A stretch of 64,000 bases of DNA from an uncultured Aminicenantes bacterium. GTDB lineage: Bacteria; Acidobacteriota; Aminicenantia; UBA2199. The position numbers and the translations under genes were made by a program. The DNA lies in the NCBI GenBank assembly GCA_965195285.1, contig CBDAFS010000030.1, forward strand, positions 18,967 through 82,966, in the 5' to 3' direction. The notes beneath the pieces were generated by a model. That model was given only the letters and a program-made list of their open reading frames with translations, searched no databases and had not been told where the DNA came from. This document shows, piece by piece, positions 827-28,764 of the stretch (its first letter is position 1; every line of letters begins with the position of its first letter).

Positions 827-944
827 TTAATAGTATGACTAAATTTACTAAAAAAAGTGAATTATTTGATTTCCTATATGCTTATAATAGTCTAGCTTAT
901 AAAGACCAAAAAAACTACTGTTTATTCATCTAAATTTGAAATCT

Positions 945-2743: not shown

Positions 2744-3675
2744 TTCAAAATTCTCCTTATTGAATACTGCTTGGCATTTGATGATTCTTTAAGCAACCTT
2801 GATATATATTCTCCAAGGACAAAAAAAATTATCAGAATCAAGGTGTTATAAAAAGATATCAATACAATCAAACTTGTCCAGCCGGTAGGTGCCTGTCCGG
2901 AAATAACTTTTCTGATTATAAATATTGTACCAATGAAAAAAGAAAAAAATGAAACTATTAATCCTATATAACCGAAAAACCGTAAGGGTATTGTCGAATG
3001 ATTTATCAGAAGGTTGAATGAAATTTTTAGCAATTTTTTAACTGTATAATTTGATTTTCCATATTTCCTTTTTTTATGCATCAGGGTAACATTCGAAATA
3101 TTCTTAGTTGTCCTTAAAAGCATTCCGGAAATATATGGAAAATTTGTTCTATCATCTTTGATCTGATCTATTATCTCTTTTTTTATGATACGAAAACTGG
3201 AAAATTTCATATTGTTTTTAGCATTAAATATTTTATGATTTAGCATTCTGATAACTGCGCTTCCAAAATTTTTATATAATTTATCCTGTTTATCAGCATA
3301 AGAACCAAATACTGCATCATAACCCTCATTAATCTTTTCAACCAATTTCGGAATTTCTTCCGGTGGATTTTGCAAATCATCATCTAGGGTAATCACATAA
3401 TTGCCATTACAATAATTAAAGCCACACATTAAAGCATTTTGCTGCCCAAAATTGGAGTAAAGGTCTATCAATGTTACATTTTCATGTTGATCATGGATTT
3501 CCTTCAATATGCTCAAGCTATCGTCTTTACTGCAATCGTTTACAAATATTATTTCAAATGTCTTGCTCATTTTGACAAAGATAGAGTTTATTCTTTCATA
3601 TAACTCCTTTAAGGATGGGGCGCTATTATAAACAGGAACCACAATCGAAAATTCTTTTGTTTCCATGTTCTTCAT
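2740..3675 (-). CDS. GT2 glycosyltransferase, ArnC/GtrB-like (polyprenol-phosphate glycosyltransferase)
   Basis: SIVVPVYN, VNDCSKD, NFGQQNA, LDDDLQNPPEEI, two C-terminal TM helices. Confidence 0.88.
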   Translation of the reverse strand: MKNMETKEFSIVVPVYNSAPSLKELYERINSIFVKMSKTFEIIFVNDCSKDDSLSILKEIHDQHENVTLIDLYSNFGQQNALMCGFNYCNGNYVITLDDDLQNPPEEIPKLVEKINEGYDAVFGSYADKQDKLYKNFGSAVIRMLNHKIFNAKNNMKFSSFRIIKKEIIDQIKDDRTNFPYISGMLLRTTKNISNVTLMHKKRKYGKSNYTVKKLLKISFNLLINHSTIPLRFFGYIGLIVSFFSFFIGTIFIIRKVISGQAPTGWTSLIVLISFYNTLILIIFFVLGEYISRLLKESSNAKQYSIRRILK

Positions 3676-3681
3676 CCGTTG

Positions 3682-4458
3682 TTAAAATCCAAAATTTTCA
3701 TTTACCAAAATCAAATGTATTCTATCTTTGAATGCTTCCATAGCGCCATCTATAATTACAGTATTCAGACATCCTCGCCTCTCTGATCTGCAATCTGTAC
3801 AGTATCCAAATTTTAAACATGGATTATCAAAACGATTATGATGTTTAAGATTATGTCTGATATAATTAAGAGGTGCTGCAATATTCCGATTTCTTTTAAT
3901 CGCCGCCTCTACATCTTCAACAATCTTGTTCTTACCGACTATAATAATTACTTTTTTAGGTCCGAATATCATGCCACTTACCCGGTTCCCTGTTCCATCT
4001 GTAGATACAATCTGTCCTTTCATTGTAATTGCATTGGCCCCGATTATGAATATATCGCTTCTTAAACTTTCTCTCATCTTATCAAACAGTTTTTCCATTA
4101 AAATATAATATTCTTCTTTCGGCAAATTCATTTTCCCTGGTGGGAGCGTCCCATATACTTCATATTTCCCATCTGGATAGCGTTTCATTGGATTAATAAT
4201 TTCTAATCCAGAAATTTTTTCTATAAGATTAAAAATATCTAATTGATGCAAGGTTACACTGTCAGCGAAACCAACTTTTGTAATCTCTTCTTTATTCTTA
4301 AATTTTTTTACAAACTCCAAAACCTTTTCTTGTGCTTTTGTTTTATTATTACAAGTATAAAAATTAATTCTTCTGGAAATGAACTTTTTCGCTAATGTAC
4401 TTGCTTGTGTGTTAAAGAAATCTAATAACTCATTACTTACATTGTTTTCATTAATCAT
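3682..4458 (-). CDS. LUD-domain (LutC/YkgG-like) protein
   Basis: GANAIT..G.IV..DG.GNRV...FGPKKVIIIVG.NKIV motif and C-terminal PC...G.C.DC....R.C cysteine cluster. Confidence 0.75.
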   Translation of the reverse strand: MINENNVSNELLDFFNTQASTLAKKFISRRINFYTCNNKTKAQEKVLEFVKKFKNKEEITKVGFADSVTLHQLDIFNLIEKISGLEIINPMKRYPDGKYEVYGTLPPGKMNLPKEEYYILMEKLFDKMRESLRSDIFIIGANAITMKGQIVSTDGTGNRVSGMIFGPKKVIIIVGKNKIVEDVEAAIKRNRNIAAPLNYIRHNLKHHNRFDNPCLKFGYCTDCRSERRGCLNTVIIDGAMEAFKDRIHLILVNENFGF

Positions 4459-4519
4459 TTTTCAATATCCTTTATGTTAAATGATACACCAATATAGAAA
4501 AACCCGCCAAATGCTCCAA

Positions 4520-4954
4520 CTAATATGAATGGGGGAAAAGACAATAGCGACAATAAGGTTGTTTGCTGTAAAGAAAAACCAAATGGAAGCAAAAAATTTG
4601 CAATTCACCTCCTGCTATACGACCAACCCCAGCTGATAATTGAATTGAAATTTTTGTTCCATAATCAGGAACTGATTCTGCAAGTTCATTTAACCATTTT
4701 ATATGTAATCTATCATCAACAAATAAATGACGTGTTCTGATTGTATTAGGAATTTGCTCAAATTCCCTTGTTGTTCTGGTAAACCCTACTCTAATAAGAC
4801 CTACACCACCTTTAGCTCTTTCCACAAAGTAGTCAATACCTCTTTGGGATAAACTGCCATCAGAATTGACTAAACCACCAATACCCATTGGAGCCATTGT
4901 AATACGGTTTTTTATTTTAAGATTCCCTATTTCCCCTGGTTCAAATAATTTCAT
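4520..4954 (-). pseudogene. Truncated old-yellow-enzyme / NADH:flavin oxidoreductase (N-terminal ~120 aa only)
   Basis: LFEP..IGNL.IKNRI.MAPM, YF.ERAKGGVGLI, K..IQL..G.GR, then similarity ends. Full-length members are over 350 aa. Confidence 0.75.
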
Positions 4955-5350
4955 AAAAAAATATCTCCAAAATATCTATTTTTAGATTTCTTCTAAGTAG
5001 ATTCAAAGGTATTCCACTTATAGTAGTTAATTCTTCAAGAACTGAATTTCTTGAATAAAGTTTCTGATTGCACATGAATTTTTTTTTGCTCCTCTTTTAT
5101 ATTTATTTCTGATATTACCTGATTAATCATCGTGATTTCCTATTTAGTATATTTATAAGAATACAGTTTAATTAAAACATCTTGTTTTTGAATTTTATTA
5201 AGCCTTTGTAATATATTCCAAAAATAAAGATGCACTAAAACTAACACAATATCCAATTTCATACAAAGATTATCAATCTATTATAAAAACTTCTTAATCA
5301 TTAGAAACGAAAACAGGAATAGCAATTCTAATCATAATACGACAATTATA

Positions 5351-6289
5351 TTAAAAAATGTTATCTTTTTTAATCTTCCTTGATATAAAAATCGCTGCTC
5401 CTATAATCCCATTCGCGACTAAAGTTAAATATGTTCCTAATGAGATAATTAACGACTCCTCTTTTGATAAACCAACAAACGAAAATAGGTATGCAAATGA
5501 AATTTCTCTAACCCCAACCCCTCCAAAACTAATAGGAACCATTGTAAAAAACCACACAAGAGGAACTAAAGTTAAAAAAGGCAAAATTGAAGTTTCAACA
5601 TTAATAATCTTGGCAACAAAAAAACTAATGTAAATAGAAATAATTTGGTAAATAATCGAAAGGGAAAAAACTTTATATATCACAATTTTCCTTAGTTGCA
5701 TAATATTAAATATATTACAAACTTTATTTAGAAAAATATTCTTTGTTTTAATCTGAATTTTTAAAAATAAAAAAAGTATGATTACAATCGAATATACCAA
5801 CATCATGGATGAGATTAGCAAAAAAAATTTTAAGGGTAAATCCCAAAAAAAAGAGCTGAAAAATGAAATAAAAATTAAGGCATAAAAACCTATTAAACGT
5901 TCCGTAAAAATCATTACACCCGATTCAGTTTTAGAAATTCCACATTTTGCTACCATCAAAAGACGAACGCCATCTCCACCTAAGGCTGTCGGAAGAAAGT
6001 TATTAAATAATGAAGCAATAAAATACTGCCCCATAATTTCAAAGATAGATATTTTTTTTTTTATAGCAACTAATGATTTAAATCGAATAGCGCCTAAATA
6101 ATTCCTGAAAACAGTTAATAAAAGCAATACAATTAAAGAAATAACACTTATATAAGATGCAAATTGTTGCAGTTCTCTAATATTTACTGACTTGAAAAAT
6201 AAGATTAAAATAATTGAACTTATTATAATCTTAATAATTATCCCGAATTTAGAATTATAAATATTTTTTAATATCCCTAACAAACGCAT
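5351..6289 (-). CDS. Lysylphosphatidylglycerol-synthase-TM (UPF0104) flippase-like membrane protein
   Basis: FNNFLPTALGGD and P.SFGGVGVRE motifs, multiple TM segments. Confidence 0.8.
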   Translation of the reverse strand: MRLLGILKNIYNSKFGIIIKIIISSIILILFFKSVNIRELQQFASYISVISLIVLLLLTVFRNYLGAIRFKSLVAIKKKISIFEIMGQYFIASLFNNFLPTALGGDGVRLLMVAKCGISKTESGVMIFTERLIGFYALIFISFFSSFFWDLPLKFFLLISSMMLVYSIVIILFLFLKIQIKTKNIFLNKVCNIFNIMQLRKIVIYKVFSLSIIYQIISIYISFFVAKIINVETSILPFLTLVPLVWFFTMVPISFGGVGVREISFAYLFSFVGLSKEESLIISLGTYLTLVANGIIGAAIFISRKIKKDNIF

Positions 6290-6301
6290 ATTATTATGTA
6301 A

Positions 6302-7186
6302 TTAATTTTTTCGTTGGATTAACTCGTGTTTCTTTAATATTTTCTTAGCAGTAATCACCATTGGAGGTCCGATAAATTTTCCATTAAGAACGGCAACACC
6401 TTTATCCATTTTTTCAGCTTCTTCAGAAAGGTGAAGCATCTCTTCTGCGTCTTTCACTTCTTTTTCTGTTGGGCTAAAATATTCATGCACAAGGGGTAGT
6501 TCTTTGGGGTGCAAAACCAGCATGCCTTCAAAACCAAGGTTTTTAGCAATTTTTAAATTTTTTTCCAAATCCTCTAAATTATGAACATATATGTGAACAG
6601 TATCTATTGGCACTACATTATTCGCCCGAGCAGCCATAGCAATCATTGCCCTTGGGACAAAAAGACTTTGCCCATTAGGGTCATGAATTCCTTCCAGATC
6701 AGCAATAAAATCTTCACATCCATAGGCAATAGCAACAATTCTTGTGGAAGCTTGACAAATTTCCTGAGCATTCATTACCGCTGCTGCCGTTTCAATCAAT
6801 GGAATTATTTTAAATTTACCAACAGGTAATCCTTTTTCATATTCGATTGTTTCAAGTAGTTTGTCAAAAAAGTAAACATCTTCACCTTTTTGAGATTTTG
6901 GATACATAAAGCCATGAATACCCTCAATAGTCAATTGATGAACATCCTTTAAAAGTTGTCCGCTTTCTCGATCATTCACTCTGGGAAATACAAGATGTTT
7001 ATTAAATGCTCCTGTTTTTACCCATTGTTCTATTTTATCTCGTGCAATTTGCTTATTTTTAACAGGTAATACTGAATCTTCTAAATCCAAAAGTAATATA
7101 TCGGTATTTGATTTTGAGGCACTTTTTAGCAACTTAGCGTTATGTCCCGGCACAAACATCAAACTTCTCATTAAATATTCCGACAT
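6302..7186 (-). CDS. CitE/malyl-CoA lyase family (HpcH/HpaI aldolase/citrate lyase)
   Basis: RSLMFVPG, LDLEDSV, PLIET, GCEDF, GF.G...HP motifs. Likely start is MSEYLMRS. Confidence 0.85.
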   Translation of the reverse strand: MSEYLMRSLMFVPGHNAKLLKSASKSNTDILLLDLEDSVLPVKNKQIARDKIEQWVKTGAFNKHLVFPRVNDRESGQLLKDVHQLTIEGIHGFMYPKSQKGEDVYFFDKLLETIEYEKGLPVGKFKIIPLIETAAAVMNAQEICQASTRIVAIAYGCEDFIADLEGIHDPNGQSLFVPRAMIAMAARANNVVPIDTVHIYVHNLEDLEKNLKIAKNLGFEGMLVLHPKELPLVHEYFSPTEKEVKDAEEMLHLSEEAEKMDKGVAVLNGKFIGPPMVITAKKILKKHELIQRKN

Positions 7187-7187
7187 T

Positions 7188-7661
7188 TTATGCTCCTCTT
7201 TTGGGTATAAGTACATGACGTCTAAGTGTTAAAACTTTATCATTTTTCTGATTATATGCTCTTGTTTCTACATAAACAATGCCACGATCAAGTTTGCTTT
7301 TTGATTCTCTTATAGACAGAATTTCTGTTTCTGTATAAATTGTATCACCTACAAATACAGGACCATCATGGGTTACTTTTTCATAATCTAAATTAGCAAT
7401 TGCCTTACCACTAATATCTCTAACAGTTAACCCAACAACAAGGCTGAAAACCAATGTACCGACAACAAGAATTTTTCCATATTGTTGACTTTTACAATAT
7501 TCTTTATCAAGGTGTAGTGGATGATGATTCATGGTTATTAATGAAAAAAGATTATTATCACTTTCAGTTATCGTTTTACCGGGCCAGTGTTTGTATAAAT
7601 CACCTACTTTGAATTCATCAAGATATTGCCCAAAGTTTTTTTTCATATCATTTATGTTCAT
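7188..7661 (-). CDS. MaoC-family dehydratase
   Basis: G.Y..EF.VG..Y.H.PG.TITE.DN..F...TMN.HPLH.D hot-dog motif, PVF.GDT. Confidence 0.88.
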   Translation of the reverse strand: MNINDMKKNFGQYLDEFKVGDLYKHWPGKTITESDNNLFSLITMNHHPLHLDKEYCKSQQYGKILVVGTLVFSLVVGLTVRDISGKAIANLDYEKVTHDGPVFVGDTIYTETEILSIRESKSKLDRGIVYVETRAYNQKNDKVLTLRRHVLIPKRGA

Positions 7662-7807
7662 CTATCCTCCAAGAATAGATATTAAAAAAATAATATTTTT
7701 TAAAATGTAATAACATTATCCCAAGGAATCAATAAAAAAATTAAGCAGTGGGTGTTCAACATAAAAAGATCCATAACAAATTGTATAATGACCACTGTTA
7801 AAGAAAA

Positions 7808-8221
7808 TCAGGATTTCATTTTTTTATTAATAAGTCTAATGTTTATTAAATGAAAAATAATAAAGGCAAAAAGAACTCCAATAATATTGAATATGGAATC
7901 TATTATATTAAATCGTCTACCGGGAATAATTTGATGATAAAACTCGATAAAAAAGGCAAAACCGATACCAATGATAAGAAATAAAATCAAGGACTGTAAA
8001 TTTTGTTTGGGTTTGTCGTTTATAATCCATAATAAAAATAATATCGACAGGATAAAAAATTCAAGAAAGTGGATGAGATAGTCGAGACGGATGGTAGTAC
8101 CTCCTGAAGTTTTGATCTTTGGAGTAGGAAGCTGGGGAAGAGAAGAAGCGATGAAGATGAGAATGAGCCAGGTGAAGAAGAGAAGTTTTGAGTTTTGTTT
8201 AATAAATTTGAGTAAGATCAT
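7808..8221 (-). CDS. VanZ-family membrane protein
   Basis: D..IHF.EF, E..Q..IPGR..S/N..D...N..G motifs. Start moved to MILLKF because the track's extension reads repeat DNA. Confidence 0.75.
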   Translation of the reverse strand: MILLKFIKQNSKLLFFTWLILIFIASSLPQLPTPKIKTSGGTTIRLDYLIHFLEFFILSILFLLWIINDKPKQNLQSLILFLIIGIGFAFFIEFYHQIIPGRRFNIIDSIFNIIGVLFAFIIFHLINIRLINKKMKS

Positions 8222-8227
8222 TTTATT

Positions 8228-8460
8228 AACATTGAATAATGAATATCGAATAACGAACACCGAATATCGAAGGAAAGAAATATCTTACAAACCTTGAAAT
8301 TTAAACATCGAACAAAGAATAATAAATGTTGAAGGAAAAGAATCATCTTGAAAACATTGAATAATGAATATCGAATAACGAACACCGAATGTTGAAGGGA
8401 AAAAACATATTATTCATAGTGAATCATGAATATCGAATATCGAATAGCGAAGTGAAAAGG
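8228..8460. repeat. Heptamer tandem-repeat arm (GAATATC/GAATAAC/GAACACC family), left arm of cassette 1
   Basis: gaataat gaatatc gaataac gaacacc gaatatc block occurs twice, plus a third degenerate block. Confidence 0.9.
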
Positions 8461-8461
8461 C

Positions 8462-8833
8462 TCATTTTATATTATCATGTGCTGTTTTTATACTGGAAAC
8501 AAAAATTGAAATCAGTTCATTGCATTCGAGTATAAGATCATCTACTTTATCGGAATGTTTAACAAGCGGTTTCCTTTTAATAATTTTCAGTGCAATGTAT
8601 GTTTCTCTCAATTCCTTGAGTGCGATTTTCATTTTATGGATAAAATCTTTTCCGGACTCTGCACTCTGGGCCTCACCATATATTAAAGCAGGAGCAGTTC
8701 CGGACCTGATTATTTGACCTCCGATATAATTTCCATTTCTTGTATTTGGCAACTGTTCAGCTAAACTTAATATATTAACAGAAAAAGAAATCAATCTTTC
8801 TTCCAAATCATATTTTTTTTTCTCATCAATCAT
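8462..8833 (-). CDS. Four helix bundle protein (TIGR02436 / 23S rRNA IVP / bAvd-like)
   Basis: DLEER...F, Q..RSGT.....Y.EAQ.AES..DF.HK..IALKEL.ET, E..EL..I. Confidence 0.9.
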   Translation of the reverse strand: MIDEKKKYDLEERLISFSVNILSLAEQLPNTRNGNYIGGQIIRSGTAPALIYGEAQSAESGKDFIHKMKIALKELRETYIALKIIKRKPLVKHSDKVDDLILECNELISIFVSSIKTAHDNIK

Positions 8834-8835
8834 GC

Positions 8836-8970
8836 TTCAAAATTCATTATTCAATTTTTATCTTTTTACATTTCGTCATTCATTATTCATCATTCGATAT
8901 TCGATATTCATTGGTTGATAATACTTCATCATTCCTTGTTCGACATTCGTTATTCGATATTCAAAACTTC
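8836..8970. repeat. Inverted heptamer arm (GATATTC/CATCATT family), right arm of cassette 1
   Basis: cattatt catcatt cgatatt cgatatt and cgacatt cgttatt cgatatt are the reverse complement of the left-arm units. Confidence 0.9.
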
Positions 8971-11094
8971 TTATCTCTTGATTGAATCTTGCACGGCAAA
9001 AGTAGCCAGAGATGAAGCATAGAGTTCGTCGAAAGGAATGGGAGAGTGAGAACCGGTTTGGATGGCATTGAAGAAAGCCAATAATTCCTGTTGATGACCC
9101 CGATCCGGTCGTCTCAGCCTGAAAGAAGAGATTTTATTACCGTAAATCTTCATGGATTTGAAATCATTGATGGTCACCGATTGTCCGCTGCAGAAAATTT
9201 CCAAGTATTCGGCCGGCAACCGTCTATGTCCGTTGGAATAGTAGCTGATGGTGGCGATGCTGCCATTGTCAAAACCCAGGCTGATCACCAAGGTATCCTG
9301 AAGGTGAGCCGGATCTCTCAGGCTCTTGGCCGAAATGGATGAGACCTCGCCACCGGACAGGAAGATGACCAGATCCACAAACTGACACACTTCACTGATG
9401 ATTACCCCGCCACCGGTTTCGGGATCATGCACCCAATGGTCTTTGGGAAATTTTTCGCCATTGATCCGGTAATTGATAGCCTTTGGTTTTTCCGGAGGAA
9501 ACAGTTCTTTTGCCTTTTGAATAAAGGGAGCAAAGCGGCGGTTAAAACCTGCCATCAGAACAGGAAGCGGCTGGCTGCGGTTGACCAATAGCCGGTGGGT
9601 TTCCCAGATGCGTTTCAGGTCATCCTTGGTCATGGCCAAAGGCTTTTCTACAAATACATGCTTGCTCATGGTCAGGGCCTTGACAACAAATTCCGCATGG
9701 AGATCGTTTCGGGTGGTGATAAATACCGTGTTGATACGGTCATCGGCAATGATCTCATCGGCATTGCCGGTACTGTAGGCAAAGCCGTATTTGTCAGCTA
9801 CCTGGCGGGCATTGTGGCTTCGGGCCGTAATCACCCCCACCAGATTGCAGTGTTTCCGGATAAACGGTAAAATCGTTTTGCGGGCAAATCCTCCGGCACC
9901 GACAAATCCCACGGCCGGATCGACCGGGTCGGTTGGTTTTTCCTTTAAGGTTACTTTTTTGGAAAGTTCCTTTTCGCTGTCATAATCAATCACCACGCCG
10001 CAAAAAGGCTCGGACCGGCTGAGGATCATGGTGTAGATCTCCGGGGTATCCACCAGGGGAACCGTATGGGAAATCAATTGATCCACCTGTAATTTCTTAT
10101 TATTCAACAATTCAATATAAGATTGCAGATTGCGGTTTTCGGTCCAGCGCACATAGCCGATGGGATAATCCTTTCCCCTTATTTCATAAAAGGGATCTTG
10201 GCTGCCGGGTCCGTAGCCGCAGGACATACGCAAATCCAACTCTTTACGGAAATAGGGTTTACGGTCAAAACCGGTGGCTACTTTTCCGATCACCACCACT
10301 TTTCCTCGCTGGCGACACAATAGCCCGGCCAGATTCACCGGATCGGTGGTGGTGGAATCCGCAGCGATAATGACCGCATCCACCCCGTTTCCCTGAGAAA
10401 TTTCGGAAACGATGTTTTCCAATTCCGGATCAAGGAAATTCAGGGCAGTTATGGTTTTCAAGCCGGCCAACCCATTTACCCGGGCTTTATCACTGTCAAC
10501 TCCTATCACATCCACGCCGGCTGCCTGCAATACCTGGATGACCAGCCGGCCGATCAACCCCAGTCCGATCACCACCGCCTTCTCGCTCAGGCGCAGATCA
10601 GCCTGGCGCACCCCCTGAATGGCAATAGCGGCAATCCCCGCAAAGGCAGCCTGTTTCAAATCGTTTTTCCCGGGGATCTTCACACAGAGGTTCCGGTTGA
10701 CTGCCACCACATCGGCATGCCATGCCCCTTTTCCTGCACAGGCCACTTGATCACCGATTTTGATGTCATTGACCTCGTTGCTGACCGCAATGACTTCTCC
10801 GGAGCAGCTGTTGCCCAGGGTGGAAGATGCTTCAAGCTTGTTCATGACCATACGGTAGGTATCGGCCAAACCGCTCTTCTTGATCTGTTCAATAACCTGA
10901 CTGACCTCGTTTTTTCGGGATATGGCCCGGGCAATATATCCCCCCCGGGCCGCCTTGACCATGTTGCCCTCTTCTCCGCCGCTGATTACCGAATAGTGGT
11001 TTCTCACCAACACCTGGCCCCGGCCTAATACCGGAAAGGGAACTTCCAGAATCCGTATGACACCCTTCATTTTTGTGTAAGTTAGTTGTTGCAC
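8971..11094 (-). CDS. Bi-domain oxidoreductase (Zn-ADH/MDR + Gfo/Idh/MocA), polysaccharide biosynthesis
   Basis: VIGLGLIG, YG PG..D..YE..G.DYP..YVRWTE.RN, VGAGGFA, HVFVEKPLA, GFNRRF. GTG start. Confidence 0.85.
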   Translation of the reverse strand: MQQLTYTKMKGVIRILEVPFPVLGRGQVLVRNHYSVISGGEEGNMVKAARGGYIARAISRKNEVSQVIEQIKKSGLADTYRMVMNKLEASSTLGNSCSGEVIAVSNEVNDIKIGDQVACAGKGAWHADVVAVNRNLCVKIPGKNDLKQAAFAGIAAIAIQGVRQADLRLSEKAVVIGLGLIGRLVIQVLQAAGVDVIGVDSDKARVNGLAGLKTITALNFLDPELENIVSEISQGNGVDAVIIAADSTTTDPVNLAGLLCRQRGKVVVIGKVATGFDRKPYFRKELDLRMSCGYGPGSQDPFYEIRGKDYPIGYVRWTENRNLQSYIELLNNKKLQVDQLISHTVPLVDTPEIYTMILSRSEPFCGVVIDYDSEKELSKKVTLKEKPTDPVDPAVGFVGAGGFARKTILPFIRKHCNLVGVITARSHNARQVADKYGFAYSTGNADEIIADDRINTVFITTRNDLHAEFVVKALTMSKHVFVEKPLAMTKDDLKRIWETHRLLVNRSQPLPVLMAGFNRRFAPFIQKAKELFPPEKPKAINYRINGEKFPKDHWVHDPETGGGVIISEVCQFVDLVIFLSGGEVSSISAKSLRDPAHLQDTLVISLGFDNGSIATISYYSNGHRRLPAEYLEIFCSGQSVTINDFKSMKIYGNKISSFRLRRPDRGHQQELLAFFNAIQTGSHSPIPFDELYASSLATFAVQDSIKR

Positions 11095-11113: not shown

Positions 11114-11181
11114 TAGTAAGTAGTAGGTAGTAAAAAGTAGGTAGTAAGAAGTAGGTAGTAAGAAGTAAGTAGTAAGAAGTA
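11114..11181. repeat. Heptamer arm (AGTAAGA/AGTAGGT family), left arm of cassette 2
   Basis: tagtaag tagtagg tagtaaa aagtagg tagtaag aagtagg tagtaag aagtaag tagtaag. Confidence 0.92.
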
Positions 11182-11211
11182 AAAAAATAAACGATTTTCT
11201 GAAGACAATAT

Positions 11212-11601
11212 TTACTCCGTAATAATGCAAAACTTTTCAGGCTTATTTATCATTCCAAAAAGAATTCTTCCGAGTTCCTGATATTTTTCATACAATTTCG
11301 TATGCTTTTCTTCCTGAAGATATCCATGTTTGAAAGCAAAATCCAGCCATACTTCTGTCTCACTTGCTTCTCCGATCGAATCGGTTAATTTTAAAACAAA
11401 AGATTTCGGATATCTTCGCTTCGCCCATGCTTCAGTAATGTTAGCGGAAACAGATCGTGATGATCTTCTGATCTGATCAATTAAAGAATATTTTTCTTCT
11501 TTTGGAAAAGTTTTACTGATGTTGAAGATTTCAACCGCTAGATCAAAACTCAACTGATATGCAATCAGATCTCTGTAACCCCGATACATAGTTTTTTCCA
11601 T
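11212..11601 (-). CDS. Four helix bundle protein (S23/23S rRNA IVP family, bAvd-like)
   Basis: YRDL..YQ, FPKEEKYSL.DQIRRSSRSV.ANI.E, GE..ET..WL.FA...GYL. Confidence 0.92.
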   Translation of the reverse strand: MEKTMYRGYRDLIAYQLSFDLAVEIFNISKTFPKEEKYSLIDQIRRSSRSVSANITEAWAKRRYPKSFVLKLTDSIGEASETEVWLDFAFKHGYLQEEKHTKLYEKYQELGRILFGMINKPEKFCIITE

Positions 11602-11605
11602 TATG

Positions 11606-11705
11606 TACTTCTCACTCCCTACTCCTTACTTCTTACTTCTTACTTCTTACTTCTTACTCCTTACTTCTTATTGTTTTTTTTCTACTTACTATATACTACA
11701 TACTA
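11606..11705. repeat. Inverted heptamer arm (TCTTACT family), right arm of cassette 2
   Basis: ccttact tcttact tcttact tcttact tcttact ccttact, the reverse complement of the left-arm family. Confidence 0.92.
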
Positions 11706-12857
11706 GATTTTATAAAATTCTTTATACCATTCCACAAATTTTCGAATTCCCTCTTCCACCGGGGTATCCGGCCTGTATCCGGTATCCTTTTCAAGACTGG
11801 TGGTGTCAGCCCAGGTTTCCAACACATCGCCTTTTTGCAGGGGAAGGAAGTTTTTTTTGGCTTCTTTATTCATGGCCTTTTCAATAGCGGTGATGAATTC
11901 CATCAAGTTTACTGGTTTTCCTCTGCCAATGTTATAGATTTTATACGGGGTGAGGAGCGAGAGGTCGGAGGTGAGGGGCTGGGAGTCTTCGAATGTCGAA
12001 TGATGAATATCGAACGCCGAATTTCGAGTTTTTGATTTTTGATTTACTTCTGAATTCGATATTCGGGATTCGTGATTCGGTGTTCGAAGATTGGGAGTTG
12101 GTGGTCTGTCCATAACCCGGGTGATGCCTTCGATGATGTCATCGATATAGGTGAAATCCCGGCTCATCCGGCCCTGGTTGTAGACATCAATAGGCCGGTT
12201 TTTAATAATGGCCCTGACAAATTTAAAAGCCGCCATGTCCGGCCGACCCCAGGGACCGTATACGGTAAAAAAACGAAGCCCGGTGGTGGGAATTTGGTAG
12301 AGGTGGCTGTAGGCATGGGCCATGAGCTCGCAGCTCTTCTTGCTAGCCGCATACAGAGACATGGGCTGGTCTACCATATCGGCCGTGGTAAAGGGCATTT
12401 TTTGGTTTAGGCCGTATACCGAAGAACTGGAAGCATAGACCAGATGGTTGATCTCATGGTGGCGGCAGGCCTCCAGGATGTTCAGAAAACCTTGGATGTT
12501 GGAGTCCATATAAGCCTGGGGATTTTGCAAAGAATAGCGCACCCCGGCCTGGGCTGCCAGGTGGCAGACCCGGTCGAATGGTTCTTGTTCGAACAGTTCG
12601 GTTATTTTTTCCCGATCCTCCAGGTTTAATTGGATAAACCGGTAATTGTCAAGAGTCTGGCTTTCCACGGGGATTCCATACTGAATTTTCTCCGAATCGA
12701 TTCCGGTGTCCTTCAGCCGGCCGTATTTCAGGTTGACATCATAGTAGTCATTGATATTGTCCAGGCCTATCAGCGTATGACCACTGTTTGCCATCTGTTT
12801 GACCAGGGAATGGCCGATGAATCCGGCGGTTCCAGTTATTAAGATCTTCAAGGTCAA
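11703..12857 (-). CDS. NAD-dependent epimerase (UDP-glucuronate 4-epimerase, WcaG/CapI-like) carrying an internal insertion
   Basis: ITGTAGFIG, HLAAQAGVRYS, YASSSSVYG, YAASKK, GLRFFTVYGPWGRPDMA. TTG start after AGGAG. Confidence 0.92.
   Translation of the reverse strand: MTLKILITGTAGFIGHSLVKQMANSGHTLIGLDNINDYYDVNLKYGRLKDTGIDSEKIQYGIPVESQTLDNYRFIQLNLEDREKITELFEQEPFDRVCHLAAQAGVRYSLQNPQAYMDSNIQGFLNILEACRHHEINHLVYASSSSVYGLNQKMPFTTADMVDQPMSLYAASKKSCELMAHAYSHLYQIPTTGLRFFTVYGPWGRPDMAAFKFVRAIIKNRPIDVYNQGRMSRDFTYIDDIIEGITRVMDRPPTPNLRTPNHESRISNSEVNQKSKTRNSAFDIHHSTFEDSQPLTSDLSLLTPYKIYNIGRGKPVNLMEFITAIEKAMNKEAKKNFLPLQKGDVLETWADTTSLEKDTGYRPDTPVEEGIRKFVEWYKEFYKI
11986..12090. repeat. 105-bp in-frame palindromic heptamer insertion
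   Basis: TCTTCGAA...TTCGAAGA ends, with cgaatgt cgaatga tgaatat cgaacgc facing gatattc gggattc gtgattc ggtgttc. Confidence 0.85.
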
Positions 12858-13140: not shown

Positions 13141-14109
13141 CTATCTTCTGAATTTTTTTAATTCCCGCTCAAATCCATCAATCATCAGTTTTATTTCATG
13201 GTTCTCAATGGATTCCAGCATAAAACGCCTTACCATCTGGGAAACCGCCACATAATCCATTTCCACCAGTTCCCCGATCTCCCGCAGCCGCAGGTCACTG
13301 TATTTCTTCAAACCATACAGGAACAGCTTTCGGAAGTGGTTGTTTTTGCGCTTTTTGTACAGCAGCTCTCTTTTAACCCTGAAGCGCCGGCATATGATGC
13401 GGGAGATATCTTCGGGTTGGAGCCGCCTCAGACTCTTCAGGGCCGGTTTTTCCCGGATCTCTCCCATTCTCAGGTCAGCCTCTATCTTGCGGGCAATCTT
13501 TCGGCGAAATTTTTCACCGCCTACGATCGACTGCACCCCGTAGAAATCTTCTTTTTTTATCCCCTCATCCTGATTCAGCAGGTCATAGACATACTTGCGG
13601 TAAAATTTCTTTTTGTTATTAAATTCGCTCAGGAGTTCGGCGGTGACCAGCCATAGCGGCCGTTTTTCTCTGCCGATGTAGCGGGCAAAACTGCTCCAGG
13701 GGTAATCTTCGGGTTTTTTAACCTTACCCTCCCGCAACGGGGTCAGGTGGATGTAAGCGCTCAACCTCATCAAATAACCGTTTTTTTCCACCAGAACGGC
13801 CCGGTAGCGGCCCTGGAAAACCGAGCCCTTGACCCCGTACTTGAGCTTGAACCAGTTTGAGTAGCTGGAGTTTAAATGGTGCATACAGCGGGAGAGATTG
13901 CCCTCCGGGGTTTCGATGAGCATGTGGAAACGATCGTCCAGAAGGGTATAGCAGTGGACCTTGAGGTTGAACTTATCCACCACCTCGCCGGTTTTTTCCA
14001 GGAATTTCAGCCGGTCAACCTTTTCATGAAAAATCTTCTCATGCTTGTCTCCCTGGGACATCACATGGTAACAGGCGCCCTTGTACTCTATACGGGGTTG
14101 TCGAGCCAT
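13141..14109 (-). mobile_element. REP-associated tyrosine transposase (RAYT, Y1 HUH family) with C-terminal HTH; HUH motif degenerate
   Basis: MAR.PRI...G..YHV, G.VFQGRY.A.LVE, YIHL.P, PEDY.WSS. Expected N-H-x-H reads D-R-F-H. Confidence 0.85.
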
Positions 14110-14144: not shown

Positions 14145-14242
14145 ATGTTAAGACACGTCCCCAAGAGATTTAAAAGAAAAAGTACTCAGGTTGAGGTTAA
14201 GAAAGAAGGTTAAGGTTGAGGTTGAGGAAAAGAAAAAAACCA

Positions 14243-14440
14243 CTGGTCATTAGAACTCTCTGGGGACTTGTCATTATATCTATCAAGTTCTTGTCATTGA
14301 AACCCTCTGATTTTGGTCATTAAGAACTATCATAACATATCATTACAGTTCTCCAGGGTTCTTTATGACGCACGCATTATGTGCTAATGACAAGCTCTCT
14401 ATAGATCTTAATGACACGAGCGAAGCGAGTAAATGACCAG
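14243..14440. repeat. GTCATT/AATGAC periodic palindromic element, copy 1
   Basis: Five (G/A)TCATT then four (A/T)ATGAC at 22-24-nt spacing, CTGGTCATT/AATGACCAG ends. Confidence 0.85.
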
Positions 14441-14544
14441 ATTAGTGATATTCATCTTCAAAACTTCTTATCTTCTGAACTTCTGTCTCCTTAATTCTAA
14501 GGTTAAGGTTAAGAAAAAACTCTGTTTGTTTTTTTTTATCCTGT

Positions 14545-15912: not shown

Positions 15913-16695
15913 ATGTATATGCGTTTGCTTCAATTAAAAATTAAACCCGAAGGCCTTGAACTGGCCCAACATTATTACAAAGACACGGTGGTGCCCCGGT
16001 TACGCACCATGCCGGGATGCCGGTTTGCCCGGCTGATCCAGAACCACTCCGAGCCCAGTGATTTGATATCCATGACCCTGTGGGAACGCCGGCAAGATGC
16101 CGAGGCCTTCCAGCAGAGTCCGGTCTTCAAGCAGATGATGGCCGAGTTTTCCGTATTTTTAGCCGATAGTTCGGTCTGGAAGATACAGTTGAGCCAGAAG
16201 CTGGAACTGGAATACCGGCCCAAAACCCAGGAACCGGTGACCCAGGCCTTCCCGGTATCCACCCAGAAAATCCTGGTCAAGCCGGAAAATTGCGTATCTT
16301 CACCTCTGTTTGTGCGCATTGTCCAGCATAAGATCCAGCCGGGTAAAATGGAAGAATTCCGGAAACTGTACCGGGAAAGCATTATTCCCGTTCTGGAAAA
16401 AACCCGGGGCTGCTGTTCGGCCTATCTGATGGAAAACATGCAGAACGGCGAAGAAGTGGTGTCCATCACCGTCTGGGAAAACCAGCGGGCTGCGGAAGAT
16501 TATGAACAGAGTGGACAGTTTCAGGTATTGATCGACCGGGTCAAACACTGCTACACACGGCTCTTTCAGTGGAAAATGTCTTTGGCCCAAAATGGGGAAA
16601 AGCAGGCCAAGACCAGCGATGATATGCAGGTGGATCATTACACCGTGGTTTCAGGGGAGGAGTTTGGGGATTCACCAACAAAAAACAGGACTTAG
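15913..16695 (+). CDS. Tandem antibiotic-biosynthesis-monooxygenase (ABM) domain protein
   Basis: Two repeats of ...P.L...PG/RGC....L......IS.T.WE....AE.F/Y..S. Confidence 0.75.
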   Translation: MYMRLLQLKIKPEGLELAQHYYKDTVVPRLRTMPGCRFARLIQNHSEPSDLISMTLWERRQDAEAFQQSPVFKQMMAEFSVFLADSSVWKIQLSQKLELEYRPKTQEPVTQAFPVSTQKILVKPENCVSSPLFVRIVQHKIQPGKMEEFRKLYRESIIPVLEKTRGCCSAYLMENMQNGEEVVSITVWENQRAAEDYEQSGQFQVLIDRVKHCYTRLFQWKMSLAQNGEKQAKTSDDMQVDHYTVVSGEEFGDSPTKNRT

Positions 16696-17206
16696 GTTAA
16701 GGTAAAGGTAAAGGTTGAGGTTAAGGTTAAGAAAAAAAATAAAACTATTAAAACCTCCTTAATTTTCATATCTCTTTACCTTTACCTTTGCCTCAACCTT
16801 AGAATTAAGAAGTCAGGAGATAGAAATCCGAAATCCCAAATTCTAAATCCGAAACAAAGAGATTATTAATAAACATTGAATGATGAACACCAAATATTGA
16901 ATGATGAATATCGAATAACGAACACCGAATATCGAAGGAAAGAAATATCTTACAAACCTTGAAATTTGAACATTGAACAAAGAATATCGAATGTCGAAGG
17001 AAAATAATCATCTTAATTAACAGTGAATGATGATCACCGAATGTCGAATCATGAATGTCAAAGTGAAAGATTCATTTTTTTTTACACTTCATCATTCCTT
17101 GTTCGTTATTCATTATTCGAAATTCAAAATTAAATACTATTTTCCTTTACCTTAACTTTTGCCTTTACCTTTACCTTTACCTTTACCTCTACCTTTACCT
17201 TTGCCT
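16693..17206. repeat. Nested repeat mosaic between convergent genes (hexamer arms, AAATCCG heptamers, empty GAATATC cassette)
   Basis: (AGGTWA)n at left, (TTACCT)n at right, heptamer blocks inside. Confidence 0.9.
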
Positions 17207-20200
17207 TTATTTTACCTTTAGTTCAAAGCTCTGTGAATGGCTGTTAAACTCCGGGGCATACATGCATTCGATGTGGGCCATGCCGCTCTGAAACCGGCCC
17301 CGGTGTACCACCCGAAGGGAATATTCAAACACATAGGTCCCCTTGGGCAGGTAATCAATGAAAAAATGGGTGGCTGTATCCAGGGTGGATTCGTAATAAG
17401 CCAGTCCGTCCTGGAACTTATATCGGGATAGCACATTCACCGGTTCCAGGCCGCTGCCCCGATGGTCTTTCATATGGACATACTCCATATCCCGGTCGGT
17501 TCGCAGCTCGATCCGGACCACTAACAGATCACCCACCCCCAGGCTCCCTTGATAGGGTTCGATCATCGGTCCTTTGTCGGTGAAGCGGCGCACAAACAGG
17601 CGCTTCTTCAGTTTCAGGGGATTTCCGGTATGGGGGGTGATTTTTGAGATATCTTCCAGGTACTGCCAGTGAACCCCGCCCCAGGCAATGCCCTTGTCCT
17701 TTTTGGAAACCGTAATCCGGCCCATATCCGCAATAATATCCCGGGGCTGATAGACCTTTTCATAGTAACCGGTCCCGGCTTCCGGTTTTTCGATTTCCAC
17801 CTTTTGGCCACCCAGGGTGACCTCTACCGGTAAATCCGAAGCCAGCAAGTCGTCTCCCCGCAGCAGCACCGCATACACCGCATCGGCAGTGGCCTTGGTG
17901 GTTTTCCAGTCCCGGGCCTGCTTTTGTTTCAGCAGCCACACCTTACATTCCTCAACAGCCTGGTGGTCTCCCATTACTTCATCAAAGGCCTCGATCATCA
18001 CGGCCTGGGTTTCGATGGGAGCCCGGAACCACCACCAGGACAGTTCCGTTTCCCGCCAGTAACGGCCTAATTCCTCATTGAACCGGCTCCTTTCCTTGAT
18101 GGAATGCATGATTTTACGGGCAGTTACCGAATCCCCGAAGCGGTTCAGGGCCAGGGCCAGCTGGGCCTGATTCTGGCGATGGCTCAGCTTCAGCCAGTAC
18201 TCACGGGCCTGTTGGAGAAAATAATCCACGGCTTTCTGGTATTTTGAAGAAAGCGGATGCTTTTTCAGATAATAACTGCGGCCGTACAGGTACAGGGCAA
18301 CCCGGGAACCCAGATTATTGGATTTCAGATGTCCCCTGGACACAATACGGTTGTAGACTTCCAGGATCCGGTTATCCAGGAACCGGATGGCTTTTCCGGT
18401 CAGGTCAAGGGGAATGTCATCCACGCCCAGGTGTCGGAGCCGGCCGAAACCGGTAACAATATAGAGAGTAATATAATGGTTACCCGGTCCCCCCGGAAAC
18501 CAGGGCCAGGAGCCATCACTCAGCTGCATGTCTTCTAATTTCAGGTAGGCGCGTTTCAATTCCCGGTCCAGTCGGTTTTCATCGAAGAGCAGGCCGACCC
18601 GGTGTTTGGCCTGGGTTTCATTTTGGGCCTGCCTCACCCAGGGGCTTTCCCGCAACAACACACTTTTCAGATCCGGGTTTTTTTCCAGGTTGGACTTCAG
18701 AGCCCCGCTTGCCTTCCAGCGGTTAAAAATCCGGTGGATTCGGGGATCGGAATGGGCGATGTGGCGGGCCAGGCCATTGGCATAGAGCCGGTTGAATACC
18801 TGCTCGGAACACTCATGGGGAAATTCCATCAAGTAAGGCAGGGCCTGGACCGCATACCAGGCCGGATTGGAGGTCATCTGAACGGTCAGTCCTTTGTGAA
18901 CCAGGGTTTTAGAGCCGGAGGAAAGGGACAGTTTTCTGAACTCGAACCGTTTTTCCCCCTGCTTGCTGATCCACAGGGGTATGGATTCCCGCACCAACAG
19001 CCGGCGGCTCAAAACCGGCAGAACTCCCTCTTCGCCGTCAGAATATTCTTCAGTGGCACCCACGGCCCGGAAAGCCACCATATCCAACCCATCCGGGACC
19101 TTAATCCGGAATCTCAGGGTCCGGGACTGTTTGGAGGGGATGGAGAAGGTCTGGTCTTTATCCCGGTTGTTCAGGGAATCATCCAGGGAGGTTTCATTCT
19201 GTGGATTAAAAAATTGGAGCCTCAATGACCCGCTTTCCGGTTTATCCGACATATTGGTTACCTTTACGGTGAATTCGAGCTCATCACCCTCCCTTAAAAA
19301 CCGGGGCGGGTTGGGCTGGACCATGAGGTCCTTGCGGGTTATGGAGCGGCCTTCGATGCTGCCGTATTTCATATCAATGGTATGCGCAAAACCGATAAAC
19401 CGCCATTCGGTCAGGGCTTCGGGCATTTTAAATTCAATGGTCACGGACCCGTCCCCGGCGGTCTTCAGATGGGGATAAAAGAAGGCGGTTTCATTTAAAT
19501 TCTTTCTGGCCTGGACTTTGGAAAGATCAATTTTTTTTCCACCCTTATCCCTGTCTCCATTTCGTTTTGTCTCCTTTATGGTGGCATCCTTTCCTCCGGA
19601 AACTCCGTTAATATCTTCGTATGACAGCACCAGGGCCTCCCCAAGCGCTTTACTGAACATTTCTTCGGGCCTTAACACCTTCTGTTTGCTGACATGTCGT
19701 CTGGACCCGTACTGGTAACCGAAGAGGCTCTGGATCACCTCTTGGGGAAAGTGCGCATAATTGGCTGCTGAATATGAATAGCGGACATTCAGGCGGTTGA
19801 TAAAATTTGAGAAATCAATCCCTTGGTTGGAAAACCGCAAACGCAGGGAAGTACTGTCCGCATCGAAAAGGTTTGAAAAACCCTGAAAAAAATGGGGATA
19901 GTACTGGTCCAGTGACACATCATAGAGGGTGGCCACCATTTCCGCGGCCCTGATTTCAGAACCCGGACCCTTGATCTTAAGAGACCAGGTTTCCTTCTGG
20001 CCCGGTTCCAGGGTGGAGCGGAAGGTCTGCCACTGGAGTTGCAGTTGTTTGTTATACCAGGGCACATAGACCCGGGTGGTGGTTTGATACTGGCGATTCT
20101 GCTTGACCAGGGTGGCTACCAGGGTAAATCCACCCCGCAATTTTTCATCGATGGGAATCCTGATCAATCCCTGGGTCTGGCCCGGAGAAGTCCAGGATTT

Positions 20201-23344: not shown

Positions 23345-23731
23345 AGGTTTAGGTTAAGGTAAAGGTAAAGGTAGAGGTAAAGGTAAAGGTAAAGACGTGA
23401 AACGTAAAGAGTAAAAGGTGAAGACGTAAGGCGTAATACGTAAAGCGTAAAATGTGATTGGTAATTGGTTAACTGTAGGGGCGAATGGAAATTCGCCCAA
23501 TTGTTTATATCGATTTTTCATATTGGTTGTAATAATCATCTCTTTCAGGGCAAACCGCCGTTTGCCCCTACAACAATTTTTCTCCTAATCTAAATTTGTT
23601 TTTGTTTTGAATTTTGGACATTTGAGTTTTGAATTTGTTTCGGATTTAGAATTTGGGATTTCGGATTTGTTTCTTCTGGATTCTTACTTCTGAGTTAAAG
23701 GCAAAGGTAAAGGTAGAGGTAAAGGTAAAAA
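23345..23731. repeat. Nested repeat mosaic (hexamers, ACGTAAA heptamers, REP doublet, CGGATTT heptamers)
   Basis: Directly visible tandem blocks. Confidence 0.9.
23475..23571. repeat. GTAG-family REP doublet (REPIN-like), copy 1
   Basis: GTAGGGGCGAAtggaaaTTCGCCC ... GGGCAAACcgccGTTTGCCCCTAC. Confidence 0.85.
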
Positions 23732-27451: not shown

Positions 27452-27735
27452 AAGATTAACTGAGGAGTTAGAAGACAGAAGAAATAAATCCGAAATTTAA
27501 ATCATTTTAGCTCAGGTTAAGGTAGAGGTTAAGGTTAAGAAAAAAATTGTTGTAGGGGCAAACGGTGGTTTGCCCGAATCAGAAATCTATTACAAATTGA
27601 TCAAAAAAGAATAGGGCGAATTTCCATTCGCCCCTACAGTTAACCAATTACTAATCACATTTTACGCTTTACGTATTACGCCTTACGTCTTTTCCTTTAC
27701 CTCTACCTTTAACTTTACCTTCACCTTAACCTCAG
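27452..27735. repeat. Nested repeat mosaic containing REP doublet copy 2 (27552-27637), inverted relative to the 23.4-kb copy
   Basis: GTAGGGGCAAAC..GTTTGCCC ... GGGCGAA..TTCGCCCCTAC between hexamer arms. Confidence 0.9.
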
Positions 27736-28305: not shown

Positions 28306-28431
28306 TTTTCCTCCTTTCAAATCGTACTGGTTGTTCAGAAGAATGGTAGTATGGAGAAAAATAAAAGTCAAGGCTGAGATTGAGGTAAAGGTAAAGGCAA
28401 AGGTAGAGGTAAAGGCAAAGAAGGAAAACCG

Positions 28432-28650
28432 CTGGTCATTAGAACTCTCTGACTTTTGTCATTTAGAACTATCATAACTTGTCATTGAAACTCTAAAGAA
28501 CTTGTCATTAAAAAACTATTATAACTTGTCATTATAGTTCTACAGAGCTCTTAATGACGTGAACGCAGTGAACTCATGACGCATGTTTTACATGCTAATG
28601 ACGCACGCATCGCGTGCTAATGACACGAGCGAAGCGAGTAAATGACAAGT
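28432..28650. repeat. GTCATT/AATGAC periodic palindromic element, copy 2
   Basis: GTCATT at 28435/28458/28481/28504/28528; (A/C)ATGAC at 28553/28575/28597/28619/28641. Confidence 0.88.
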
Positions 28651-28764
28651 TGATTTGTTCTTAACTTCAGAACTTCTTATCTTCTGAATTCTAAGGTTAA
28701 GAGAGCACAAATTATGATGCCAATCATCCCAATGAATGCTATAATGGGTGGTGTGAAAACGGTC

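Follow-up and report, generated by a model that had tools for sequence, protein, structure and literature searches.

A gene-less paralogue of a heptamer-repeat hairpin cassette with a four-helix-bundle gene in an Aminicenantes contig

A second copy of the cassette, without its gene

The subject of this analysis is a hairpin cassette present in more than one copy within a 64,000-nt stretch of DNA from an uncultured Aminicenantes bacterium (assembly GCA_965195285.1, contig CBDAFS010000030.1, positions 18,967 to 82,966; hereafter, the window). For its ribosomal protein L2, the nearest relatives that have names (~80% identity) belong to Aminicenantes and Acidobacteriota assemblies. In the filled form of the cassette (8219-8966), arms built of tandem heptamers of the type GAA-N4 enclose an open reading frame (ORF) for a small four-helix-bundle protein. 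The segment 16872-17130 is a true second copy, that is, a paralogue of the filled cassette, and the gene is absent from it. We consider it probable that this segment is a gene-less copy of a hairpin cassette which resembles the intervening sequences of ribosomal RNA (rRNA) genes but resides outside rRNA, between protein-coding genes.

Global alignment of 8200-9000 against 16850-17150 brought out two homologous segments. The left one has 110 of 118 positions identical (93%, 16896-17013 vs 8231-8348) and the right one 41 of 46 (89%, 17086-17131 vs 8923-8968), with 8 and 5 substitutions in the aligned arms, respectively. The duplication proposed in an earlier note on this DNA, written from the sequence alone, is thus borne out. 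Within the left segment, a linker of 35 nt shows no difference between the copies (16933-16967 and 8268-8302). The linker itself and a 23-mer from the common spacer have just two exact occurrences each in the window (8268 and 16933), and no further linker match is found there even with up to 8 mismatches, zero being expected by chance. At the same tolerance, the linker has no match in 55 outside loci carrying the arm motif (354,733 nt, see below). The two linker-bearing copies, the only ones seen, lie 8.6 kb apart in the same orientation and may represent a purely local duplication, which the note had named as a refutation. Because the linker occurs nowhere else, copying is favoured over independent slippage, as the note had argued. 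The note had also called this spacer non-repetitive; its version is indeed private to the two copies, but being the linker of a 62-nt higher-order unit, it does not stand outside the repeat system.

The junction is equally distinctive. In the empty copy, TCATTTT and TTTTTACAC abut, producing a run of nine T (17075-17083), whereas in the filled copy TCATTTT (8462-8468) and TTTTTACAT (8863-8871) are separated by 394 nt. The pieces that flank the ORF in one copy are therefore fused in the other, just as the note had described. The absent 394-nt piece (8469-8862) comprises the ORF minus its last codon and stop, plus an inner arm block of 29 nt to the right of the ORF (8834-8862), also termed the inner 5' arm block. 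TCA (17072-17074) and TTT, which complement the stop and last codons of the ORF, are retained at the junction. Presence or absence of the loop cargo was correctly identified as a difference between the copies, and the gene is sharply absent. However, the statement that the ORF is cleanly missing goes too far, since the copies differ in three or more further blocks: the left arm of the empty copy is on balance ~55 nt shorter, with roughly one 62-nt unit gone; the right-arm block 8872-8924 (53 nt) is absent; and ~25 additional nt, a partial extra unit, are present at the far left. On its left side, the empty copy has units that correspond to units one and two and to the final unit of the filled left arm, and the outermost right-arm block is retained. 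The inner left block 17014-17071 is kept unpaired, its partner in the filled copy, the inner arm block, being gone. The arms of the empty copy (16893-16937 and 17087-17131; 45 nt, 76% complementary) form terminal inverted repeats.

Repeat comparison within the window found no sequence common to the two sites outside the element, which suggests that the element itself, and not a larger segment, was copied. The left flanks share only an A/T-rich string that is itself part of the repeat unit. By eye, neither a target-site duplication nor any matching direct repeat was seen in the flanks of either copy.

Filled cassettes and their cargo

The filled cassette is a long imperfect inverted repeat. According to Tandem Repeats Finder, its left arm has a period of 62 in 3.7 copies (8219-8451), each unit being a heptamer block plus a linker, and tracts of period 7/14 are found at 8234-8271, 8428-8451 and 8872-8912 and, in the empty copy, at 16893-16936. 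The inner end of the 5' arm is GAAGT and the 3' arm begins with ACTTC. On folding, 8215-8975 forms one long stem around the ORF (z -3.1, 0/20 shuffles as stable). A second filled cassette (11114-11690) is laid out in the same way; its heptamers are quite different, and it carries another four-helix-bundle gene. Flank complementarity reaches z 9 for cassette 1 and z 18 for cassette 2. Both cargo genes are co-oriented with a string of polysaccharide genes, the order being epimerase, cassette 2, oxidoreductase, cassette 1 and VanZ, followed by MaoC, aldolase, flippase-like, glycosyltransferase, acetyltransferase and aminotransferase genes.

The cargo is a four-helix-bundle protein of the PF05635/TIGR02436 family, which owes its name to the intervening sequences of 23S rRNA. 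The products of the two genes, P0002 (cassette 1) and P0003 (cassette 2), score 73.4 and 106.6 bits with TIGR02436 (cutoff 24), with alignments that span positions 3-108 and 2-107 of the 109 in the model, respectively. No transposase or nuclease domain was found in the cargo ORF among Pfam and NCBIfam models. P0002 has 6079 relatives at E<=1e-5, and PF05635 is present in all 120 among the matches listed; its relatives in the PDB are 2rld, the closest solved structure, and 2gsc. Structures of the family have thus been solved, but we know of no function for it; its most recent link to a sequence context, the rRNA intervening sequences, dates from the 1990s. The C-terminal NIK of P0002 is common to a homologue in another genome (locus L038, see below), and the last codon retained in the empty copy encodes part of NIK. 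Many close relatives of P0002 are on contigs of only 0.5-3 kb, as expected if assemblies break at flanking repeats.

Gene-less hairpins in other genomes

A genome collection was scanned with a 19-mer from the arm, yielding 55 loci (L001-L055) with 57 occurrences, compared to ~4 loci expected by chance according to our own arithmetic. A few of the 55 are probably chance or coding matches (e.g. L004, L010, L013). Judging by record titles, the loci belong to Bacteroidota (nine Larkinella loci, Saprospiraceae, Kordia, Mucilaginibacter and others), Ignavibacteria, Planctomycetota, Nitrospirota, Gemmatimonadota, Anaerolinea, and delta- and gammaproteobacteria. The heptamer pattern carries on around the 19-mer; the arm ends in phase with GAAG in 23 of the 57 occurrences, and a complementary arm is no more than 70 nt away in 21 of the 55 loci. 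Among the 40 loci that could be classified, the neighbouring genes are in tandem at 24, convergent at 12 and divergent at 4. None of the 55 is syntenic with the window by blastn, and L002 was rejected as an orthologous locus, the VanZ proteins of the window and L002 being only 27% identical.

Only 2 of the 55 loci (L035 and L038) have a four-helix-bundle gene at the arm, so gene-less hairpins are the common state, and this holds across many phyla. L038 is filled; a phosphoribosyltransferase-domain gene lies on one side and the next downstream gene on the other. In L035 (3880-4660, an Ignavibacteriae assembly), alternating arms form a tandem array with one filled and two empty hairpins, and the loops of the empty ones contain a short string matching the end of the ORF. 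The nine Larkinella loci are rich in gene-less hairpins, and their 4-kb flanks contain no four-helix-bundle gene.

Four-helix-bundle genes inside inverted heptamer repeats

As the arm-based sample is biased to one arm type, we added a search based on the protein. Matching P0002 against plasmids by tblastn returned 22 records, 12 of which were examined; they come from Nostocales, Planktothrix, Pseudanabaena, Chlorohelix, Treponema and Bernardetia. Left out were near-duplicates (H2, H3, H6, H8, H15) and mostly partial matches (H17-H19, H21, H22; H19 covers 81%). For each gene, 200 nt of upstream sequence were compared with 200 nt of downstream sequence, and their best local complementarity was scored relative to shuffles. 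The results show that four-helix-bundle genes in general sit inside inverted heptamer repeats, the sequence of which varies by cassette. Scores of z>=9 were obtained for 7 of the 12 plasmid genes and of z 3.9-4.8 for 3 others, compared to z>=9 for 6 of 249 control ORFs in L001-L055 (7/12 vs 6/249, Fisher p=8e-8), one of these six being the four-helix-bundle gene of L038. The remaining controls whose flanks are complementary (among them QueH in L050 and DUF6714 in L034) are bracketed by other kinds of repeats and were set aside. In the window, z>=4 is reached by 4 of 57 ORFs, namely, the two four-helix-bundle genes, a macroglobulin-like gene and a chalcone-isomerase-like gene.

Of the 32 flanks of 16 cassettes, 31 have 7 as their best period, as opposed to 10 of 110 random segments. 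The heptamers themselves change from cassette to cassette (e.g. AATTCAA, TAATTCG, CAAGTCG, AATCCCC) while the arms stay complementary, which amounts to covariation of whole arms. This covariation is the strongest evidence suggesting that it is the pairing, rather than a particular sequence, that is retained. On the plasmids, nine of the 12 genes run in the same direction as the neighbours listed for them, and the flank duplex is stabler on the sense strand in 12 of the 16 cassettes (p=0.038). In six plasmid loci (L058, L061, L062, L065, L066 and L067), the four-helix-bundle genes lie between defence-type genes, such as helicase and N-6 methylase, DUF1156 and HEPN protein, or cas2 and cas1 (opposite strand).

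An in-frame hairpin in the epimerase gene

Another GAA-N4 hairpin (11985-12095) is located in frame inside the UDP-glucuronate-epimerase-like gene of the window (11703-12857, minus strand). The encoded epimerase has 384 residues, compared to 347-352 in most of the 120 relatives among the matches listed, and an alignment of 14 sequences places the ~37 extra residues in one surface loop. The insert is absent from the close relatives P0007, P0008 and P0012 in this alignment, where P0007 is 91% identical to the window epimerase (80% by BLASTP), and P0005, P0006, P0009, P0011 and P0084 carry inserts of a different kind in this position; the two-residue repeat in one of these inserts would imply a 6-nt repeat in the DNA. 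Since close relatives have either no insert or different ones, hairpins appear to arise, vanish or turn over at a single site among closely related lineages. The arrangement recalls the Rickettsia palindromic elements, palindromic repeats that lie in frame in protein-coding genes and are translated as an extra loop, but both the sequence and the host are unrelated, and there is one such case here.

Proposed loss of the gene and alternative explanations

We moderately favour loss of the cargo over its gain, because the complement of the stop and last codons survives in the empty copy, together with an inner left block that has nothing to pair with. The L035 array, whose empty loops contain a string resembling the ORF end, points the same way. 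In the proposed history, the element itself would have been copied without the surrounding segment, the empty state would have resulted from loss of the 394-nt piece (ORF and inner arm block) between short A/T runs, and the arms would later have changed by gain and loss of repeat blocks. As the arms differ by these further blocks, the loss would not have been one clean event. The cassette would be transcribed by read-through of the host operon, which fits the co-orientation of most cassettes with flanking genes (both in the window, L035, L038 and 9/12 on plasmids). The arms could then pair in the transcript, to which the greater stability of the sense-strand duplex in most cassettes lends slight support, and the stem may insulate the loop or allow it to be processed out, RNase III being the obvious candidate. 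The cassette would thereby do little harm to the host operon, and a gene-less copy may persist as a tolerated, harmless or mildly useful stem-loop, mostly at gene ends. New copies might be made by hairpin-directed HUH/Y1 transposition, for which a gene resembling those of transposases associated with repetitive extragenic palindromic (REP) sequences, known as REP-associated tyrosine transposases (RAYT), is present in the window, or by recombination or template switching between heptamer tracts. No link of this Y1 gene or of the REP-like doublets to the GAA-N4 arms was found in the window.

A number of observations weigh against this account. The inner hairpin of the empty copy, taken alone, is no stabler than shuffles (z -1.56 and -1.40 as RNA, -0.54 as DNA), and only ~45 nt of its ~200-nt left side has a pairing partner. 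A scan for sigma-70 promoters and terminators found sites no more frequent than in shuffles. The copies are 7-11% apart in the arms and differ in several blocks, so that their history is not a single event; the choice between loss and gain is a matter of parsimony alone, and the window, its repeats included, is known from a metagenome assembly. Among the plasmid genes, 2 of 12 (L057 and L066) have no complementary flanks, and the independent cases number fewer than 12, several being Nostocales and two pairs having a common arm type and context. The sense/antisense bias is weak, with 4 of 16 cassettes showing the opposite, and the hairpin within the epimerase ORF is also stabler on the antisense strand (-42.7 vs -31.0 on the sense strand). 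Finally, the RAYT-like Y1 gene (13141-14109) scores 61.8 bits on the RAYT model NF047646, below the cutoff of 80, and is flanked by AGGTTA-type modules, not by GAA-N4.

The alternative in which the gene-less hairpin is ancestral, and the gene was inserted or recombined from another cassette into one loop, is unlikely, despite agreeing with the commoner state of the hairpins and with a sharp junction at which both loop flanks are preserved. Insertions with and without an ORF at the same rRNA sites are also reported, for other cargo, in the available text of 10.1101/2024.02.27.582315. However, the insert would have had to bring along the 29-nt arm block 8834-8862, which happens to pair with an inner left block already in place, and to borrow from the loop its stop and its last conserved codon, part of the NIK C-terminus common to the L038 homologue.

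Doubtful, and somewhat more so than gain, is the autonomous/non-autonomous pair akin to miniature inverted-repeat transposable elements (MITEs) that the note had put forward, with the filled copy as the autonomous partner whose protein acts in trans on gene-less, non-autonomous riders. Like MITEs, the cassettes have terminal inverted repeats, although imperfect ones, and the short form is related to the longer one by an internal deletion; gene-less hairpins far outnumber filled ones (53/55 loci), and one hairpin lies inside a conserved gene whose closest relatives are without it. Moreover, the available part of PMC8700078 reports four-helix-bundle genes as strain-specific genes with cross-phylum best hits. 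Against this, the long form encodes no transposase, the cargo being a PF05635/TIGR02436 protein with no transposase or nuclease domain by Pfam and NCBIfam; the target-site duplication was not seen; the private linker is present in only two copies; and no four-helix-bundle gene accompanies the hairpin-rich Larkinella loci within the 4-kb flanks. We therefore rejected the MITE label, for want of a transposase in the partner ORF and of a visible target-site duplication.

An assembly artefact, with one copy, or the join at 8.2-9.0 kb, being a chimera formed at a repeat, is very improbable. The window does come from an assembled metagenomic contig of 82,966 nt, the arms are a widespread repeat, and G+C content changes at the right end of cassette 1. 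Yet both copies have unique flanks and intact genes and are 7-11% and several blocks apart, and the idea of a chimera is further weakened because the low-G+C block at 1-8 kb continues the polysaccharide gene string (aminotransferase, acetyltransferase, glycosyltransferase, flippase-like) on the same strand, and low G+C is common in such strings. Finally, origin of similar arms at the two sites by slippage of a common heptamer, with no copying, can hardly be entertained: stretches of up to 32 nt (100% identity) and 44 nt (93%) in arms of unrelated genomes do match the arms of the window, so that arm likeness alone proves little, but slippage would hardly yield 118 nt at 93% including an identical 35-nt linker that the 55 loci lack at up to 8 mismatches.

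Comparison with known systems

The reading of 16872-17130 as a gene-less, intervening-sequence-like cassette draws on the intervening sequences of 23S rRNA that carry an S23p/PF05635 ORF in Leptospira and Coxiella. Common to both are a stem of complementary termini, a PF05635 ORF in the loop (in the window, 8462-8833 and 11212-11601), the existence of ORF-less relatives and, probably for the window cassettes, transcription as part of the host transcript. For Coxiella, the available text of PMC4990558 describes a 28-bp terminal stem, cleaved by RNase III, around the S23p ORF. In contrast to intervening sequences, the cassettes are not inserted in 23S rRNA, as the window has no rRNA according to Rfam, but lie between, and once within, protein-coding genes, and their arms are tandem heptamers of variable number rather than a unique inverted repeat. 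The PF05635 domain is called functionally uncharacterised in the accessible part of 10.1101/2024.02.27.582315.

The cargo belongs to the same four-helix-bundle fold family as Avd, the accessory protein of diversity-generating retroelements. P0003 matches bAvd (PF22296) with 2.5e-9 and 38 bits (cutoff 40) and the Avd model with 1e-6 and 29 bits (cutoff 80), and P0002 has no hit with the Avd model. No reverse-transcriptase domain was found in the scanned cassette neighbours (oxidoreductase, epimerase and VanZ), the rest of the window not having been scanned for one. An identity of the cargo with this accessory protein was rejected, P0003 being far below the cutoff, P0002 giving no hit and no reverse transcriptase being adjacent among the scanned neighbours.

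REP sequences and the REP doublets forming hairpins (REPINs) are defined by a conserved GTAG head beside a short G+C-rich palindrome. Like the present hairpins, they are extragenic, often occur as doublets, are numerous per genome and are rare between divergent genes (here 4/40); furthermore, the window holds both the RAYT-like Y1 gene and two classical-looking, GTAG-headed REP doublets. They differ in that the GAA-N4 arms have no GTAG head, which four other units in the window do have, and are of short period and variable sequence. The Y1 gene has modules of another type at its flanks and stays below the RAYT cutoff.

Heptanucleotide repeats are the commonest long simple repeats in prokaryotes, and intergenic direct heptamer repeats, with several heptamers per spacer, are found in Beggiatoaceae, Cyanobacteria and Bacteroidetes, according to the available text of PMC4679880. 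The intergenic tandem 7-nt units of the cassettes agree with such repeats, among them the cyanobacterial short tandemly repeated repetitive (STRR) sequences and the TAACTGA repeats, as far as the accessible accounts describe them. However, the portion of PMC4679880 available reports direct repeats upstream of start codons, and no inverted arms around a four-helix-bundle gene; four-helix bundles are nowhere mentioned in that paper.

Full-text searches, which did not extend to most subscription journals, brought up no account of four-helix-bundle genes enclosed by inverted heptamer repeats other than in rRNA. The general association of this large protein family with heptamer-repeat hairpins is thus apparently undescribed. 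It supplies a context for a very large family, with genes in the loops of inverted heptamers in several phyla, gene-less hairpins as a common form and an in-frame hairpin in an enzyme, and it might account for the origin of heptanucleotide repeats in bacteria, which are so far unexplained. A far-reaching and speculative extension, to which we give little credence, is that the four-helix-bundle protein and the heptamer hairpin make up one self-propagating system, in which the pentameric, mildly basic protein would recognise hairpins in DNA or RNA and promote their copying or retention. The gene-less hairpins of Bacteroidota, Planctomycetota, Cyanobacteria and others would then be non-autonomous riders, and the 23S intervening sequences one landing site. 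If true, this would tie together three old questions: where intervening sequences come from, what a protein family with thousands of members does, and why prokaryotes have heptanucleotide repeats in excess.

Setting of the empty copy and other repeats in the window

The empty copy is nested in outer arms of AGGTAA-type hexamers (16694-16752 with 17130-17188). The whole spacer including these arms (16680-17230) is more stable than its shuffles (z -5.8, 0/100 as stable). Rfam at the gathering cutoff finds one tRNA only in the window and no rRNA; at E<=1, the tRNA is joined only by weak hairpin-like matches to microRNA precursors. Coordinates of the features are collected in Table 1.

Table 1. 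Features of the empty copy, its filled counterparts and their surroundings in the window
Feature	Position	Strand	Remarks
Empty GAA-N4 heptamer hairpin cassette, ORF-less	16872..17130	.	Between convergent gene 3' ends
Left segment	16896..17013	+	Homologous to 8231-8348; first heptamer block (~16898-16936) pairs with right arm
Private linker	16933..16967	+	Identical to 8268-8302
Inner left block	17014..17071	+	Homologous to last unit of filled left arm (~8362-8461)
Junction	17072..17087	+	Stop-codon complement TCA, then 9 T (17075-17083), then ACAC
Right arm	17086..17131	+	Homologous to 8923-8968
Filled cassette	8219..8966	.	Left arm 8219-8461 (3.7 x 62-nt units), ORF, right arm 8834-8966
Four-helix-bundle gene, 123 aa (P0002)	8462..8833	-	PF05635 1.4e-10; TIGR02436 1.5e-20
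Second filled cassette	11114..11690	.	Arms TAGTAAG left, TACTTCT right; ORF 11212-11601 (-), 129 aa (P0003), PF05635 1.9e-32
GAA-N4-type hairpin in epimerase gene	11985..12095	.	In frame within 11703-12857 (-); ~37 aa surface loop
Outer AGGTAA/AGGTTA-type arm	16694..16752	+	Pairs with 17130-17188; encloses empty copy
Outer CCTTTA-type arm	17130..17220	+	Period 6, 13.7 copies; overlaps stop of alpha-2-macroglobulin-like gene
RAYT-like gene: IS200-like Y1 transposase domain and DnaA C-terminal helix-turn-helix	13141..14109	-	Candidate mobilising enzyme only
ABM-domain gene	15913-16695	+	3' end faces empty copy
Alpha-2-macroglobulin-like gene, 2003 aa	17207-23218	-	3' end faces empty copy

G+C content is ~30% at 1-8950 and ~50% from 8950 on. 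Because the switch coincides with the right end of cassette 1, this cassette marks the border of a variable block or, possibly, an assembly join; the low-G+C part carries on the polysaccharide gene string on the same strand. None of the 55 arm-motif loci has a RAYT-like gene by jackhmmer with the Y1 protein as query. One member of the 90% cluster of the Y1 protein bears the source name RayT.

Between 8 and 29 kb, most of the long spacers are mosaics of short-period modules, several of them in two or three copies, and past 29 kb such modules are absent from the window. Arms of AGGTAA-type and GAAATCC-type (27683-27735 with 28374-28426, and 16763-16858 with 23634-23729) bracket ordinary genes, namely, the chalcone-isomerase-like gene and the alpha-2-macroglobulin-like gene of 2003 residues, so four-helix-bundle genes are not the sole cargo. 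A module of ~250 nt occurs twice (14237-14479 and 28426-28688; 71-85% identity); in it, TTGTCATTA-like repeats precede their complement, which is of the type TAATGACA. Another module, of 99 nt, consists of a heptamer tract and one REP-like unit and is present in two inverted copies (23408-23506 and 27606-27704, 93% complementarity) that bracket SpoIIE-phosphatase and TonB-receptor genes. The two REP-like doublets (23475-23571 and 27552-27637) are in opposite order to each other, and each is made of two different G+C-rich palindromes, GTAG-headed and facing each other.

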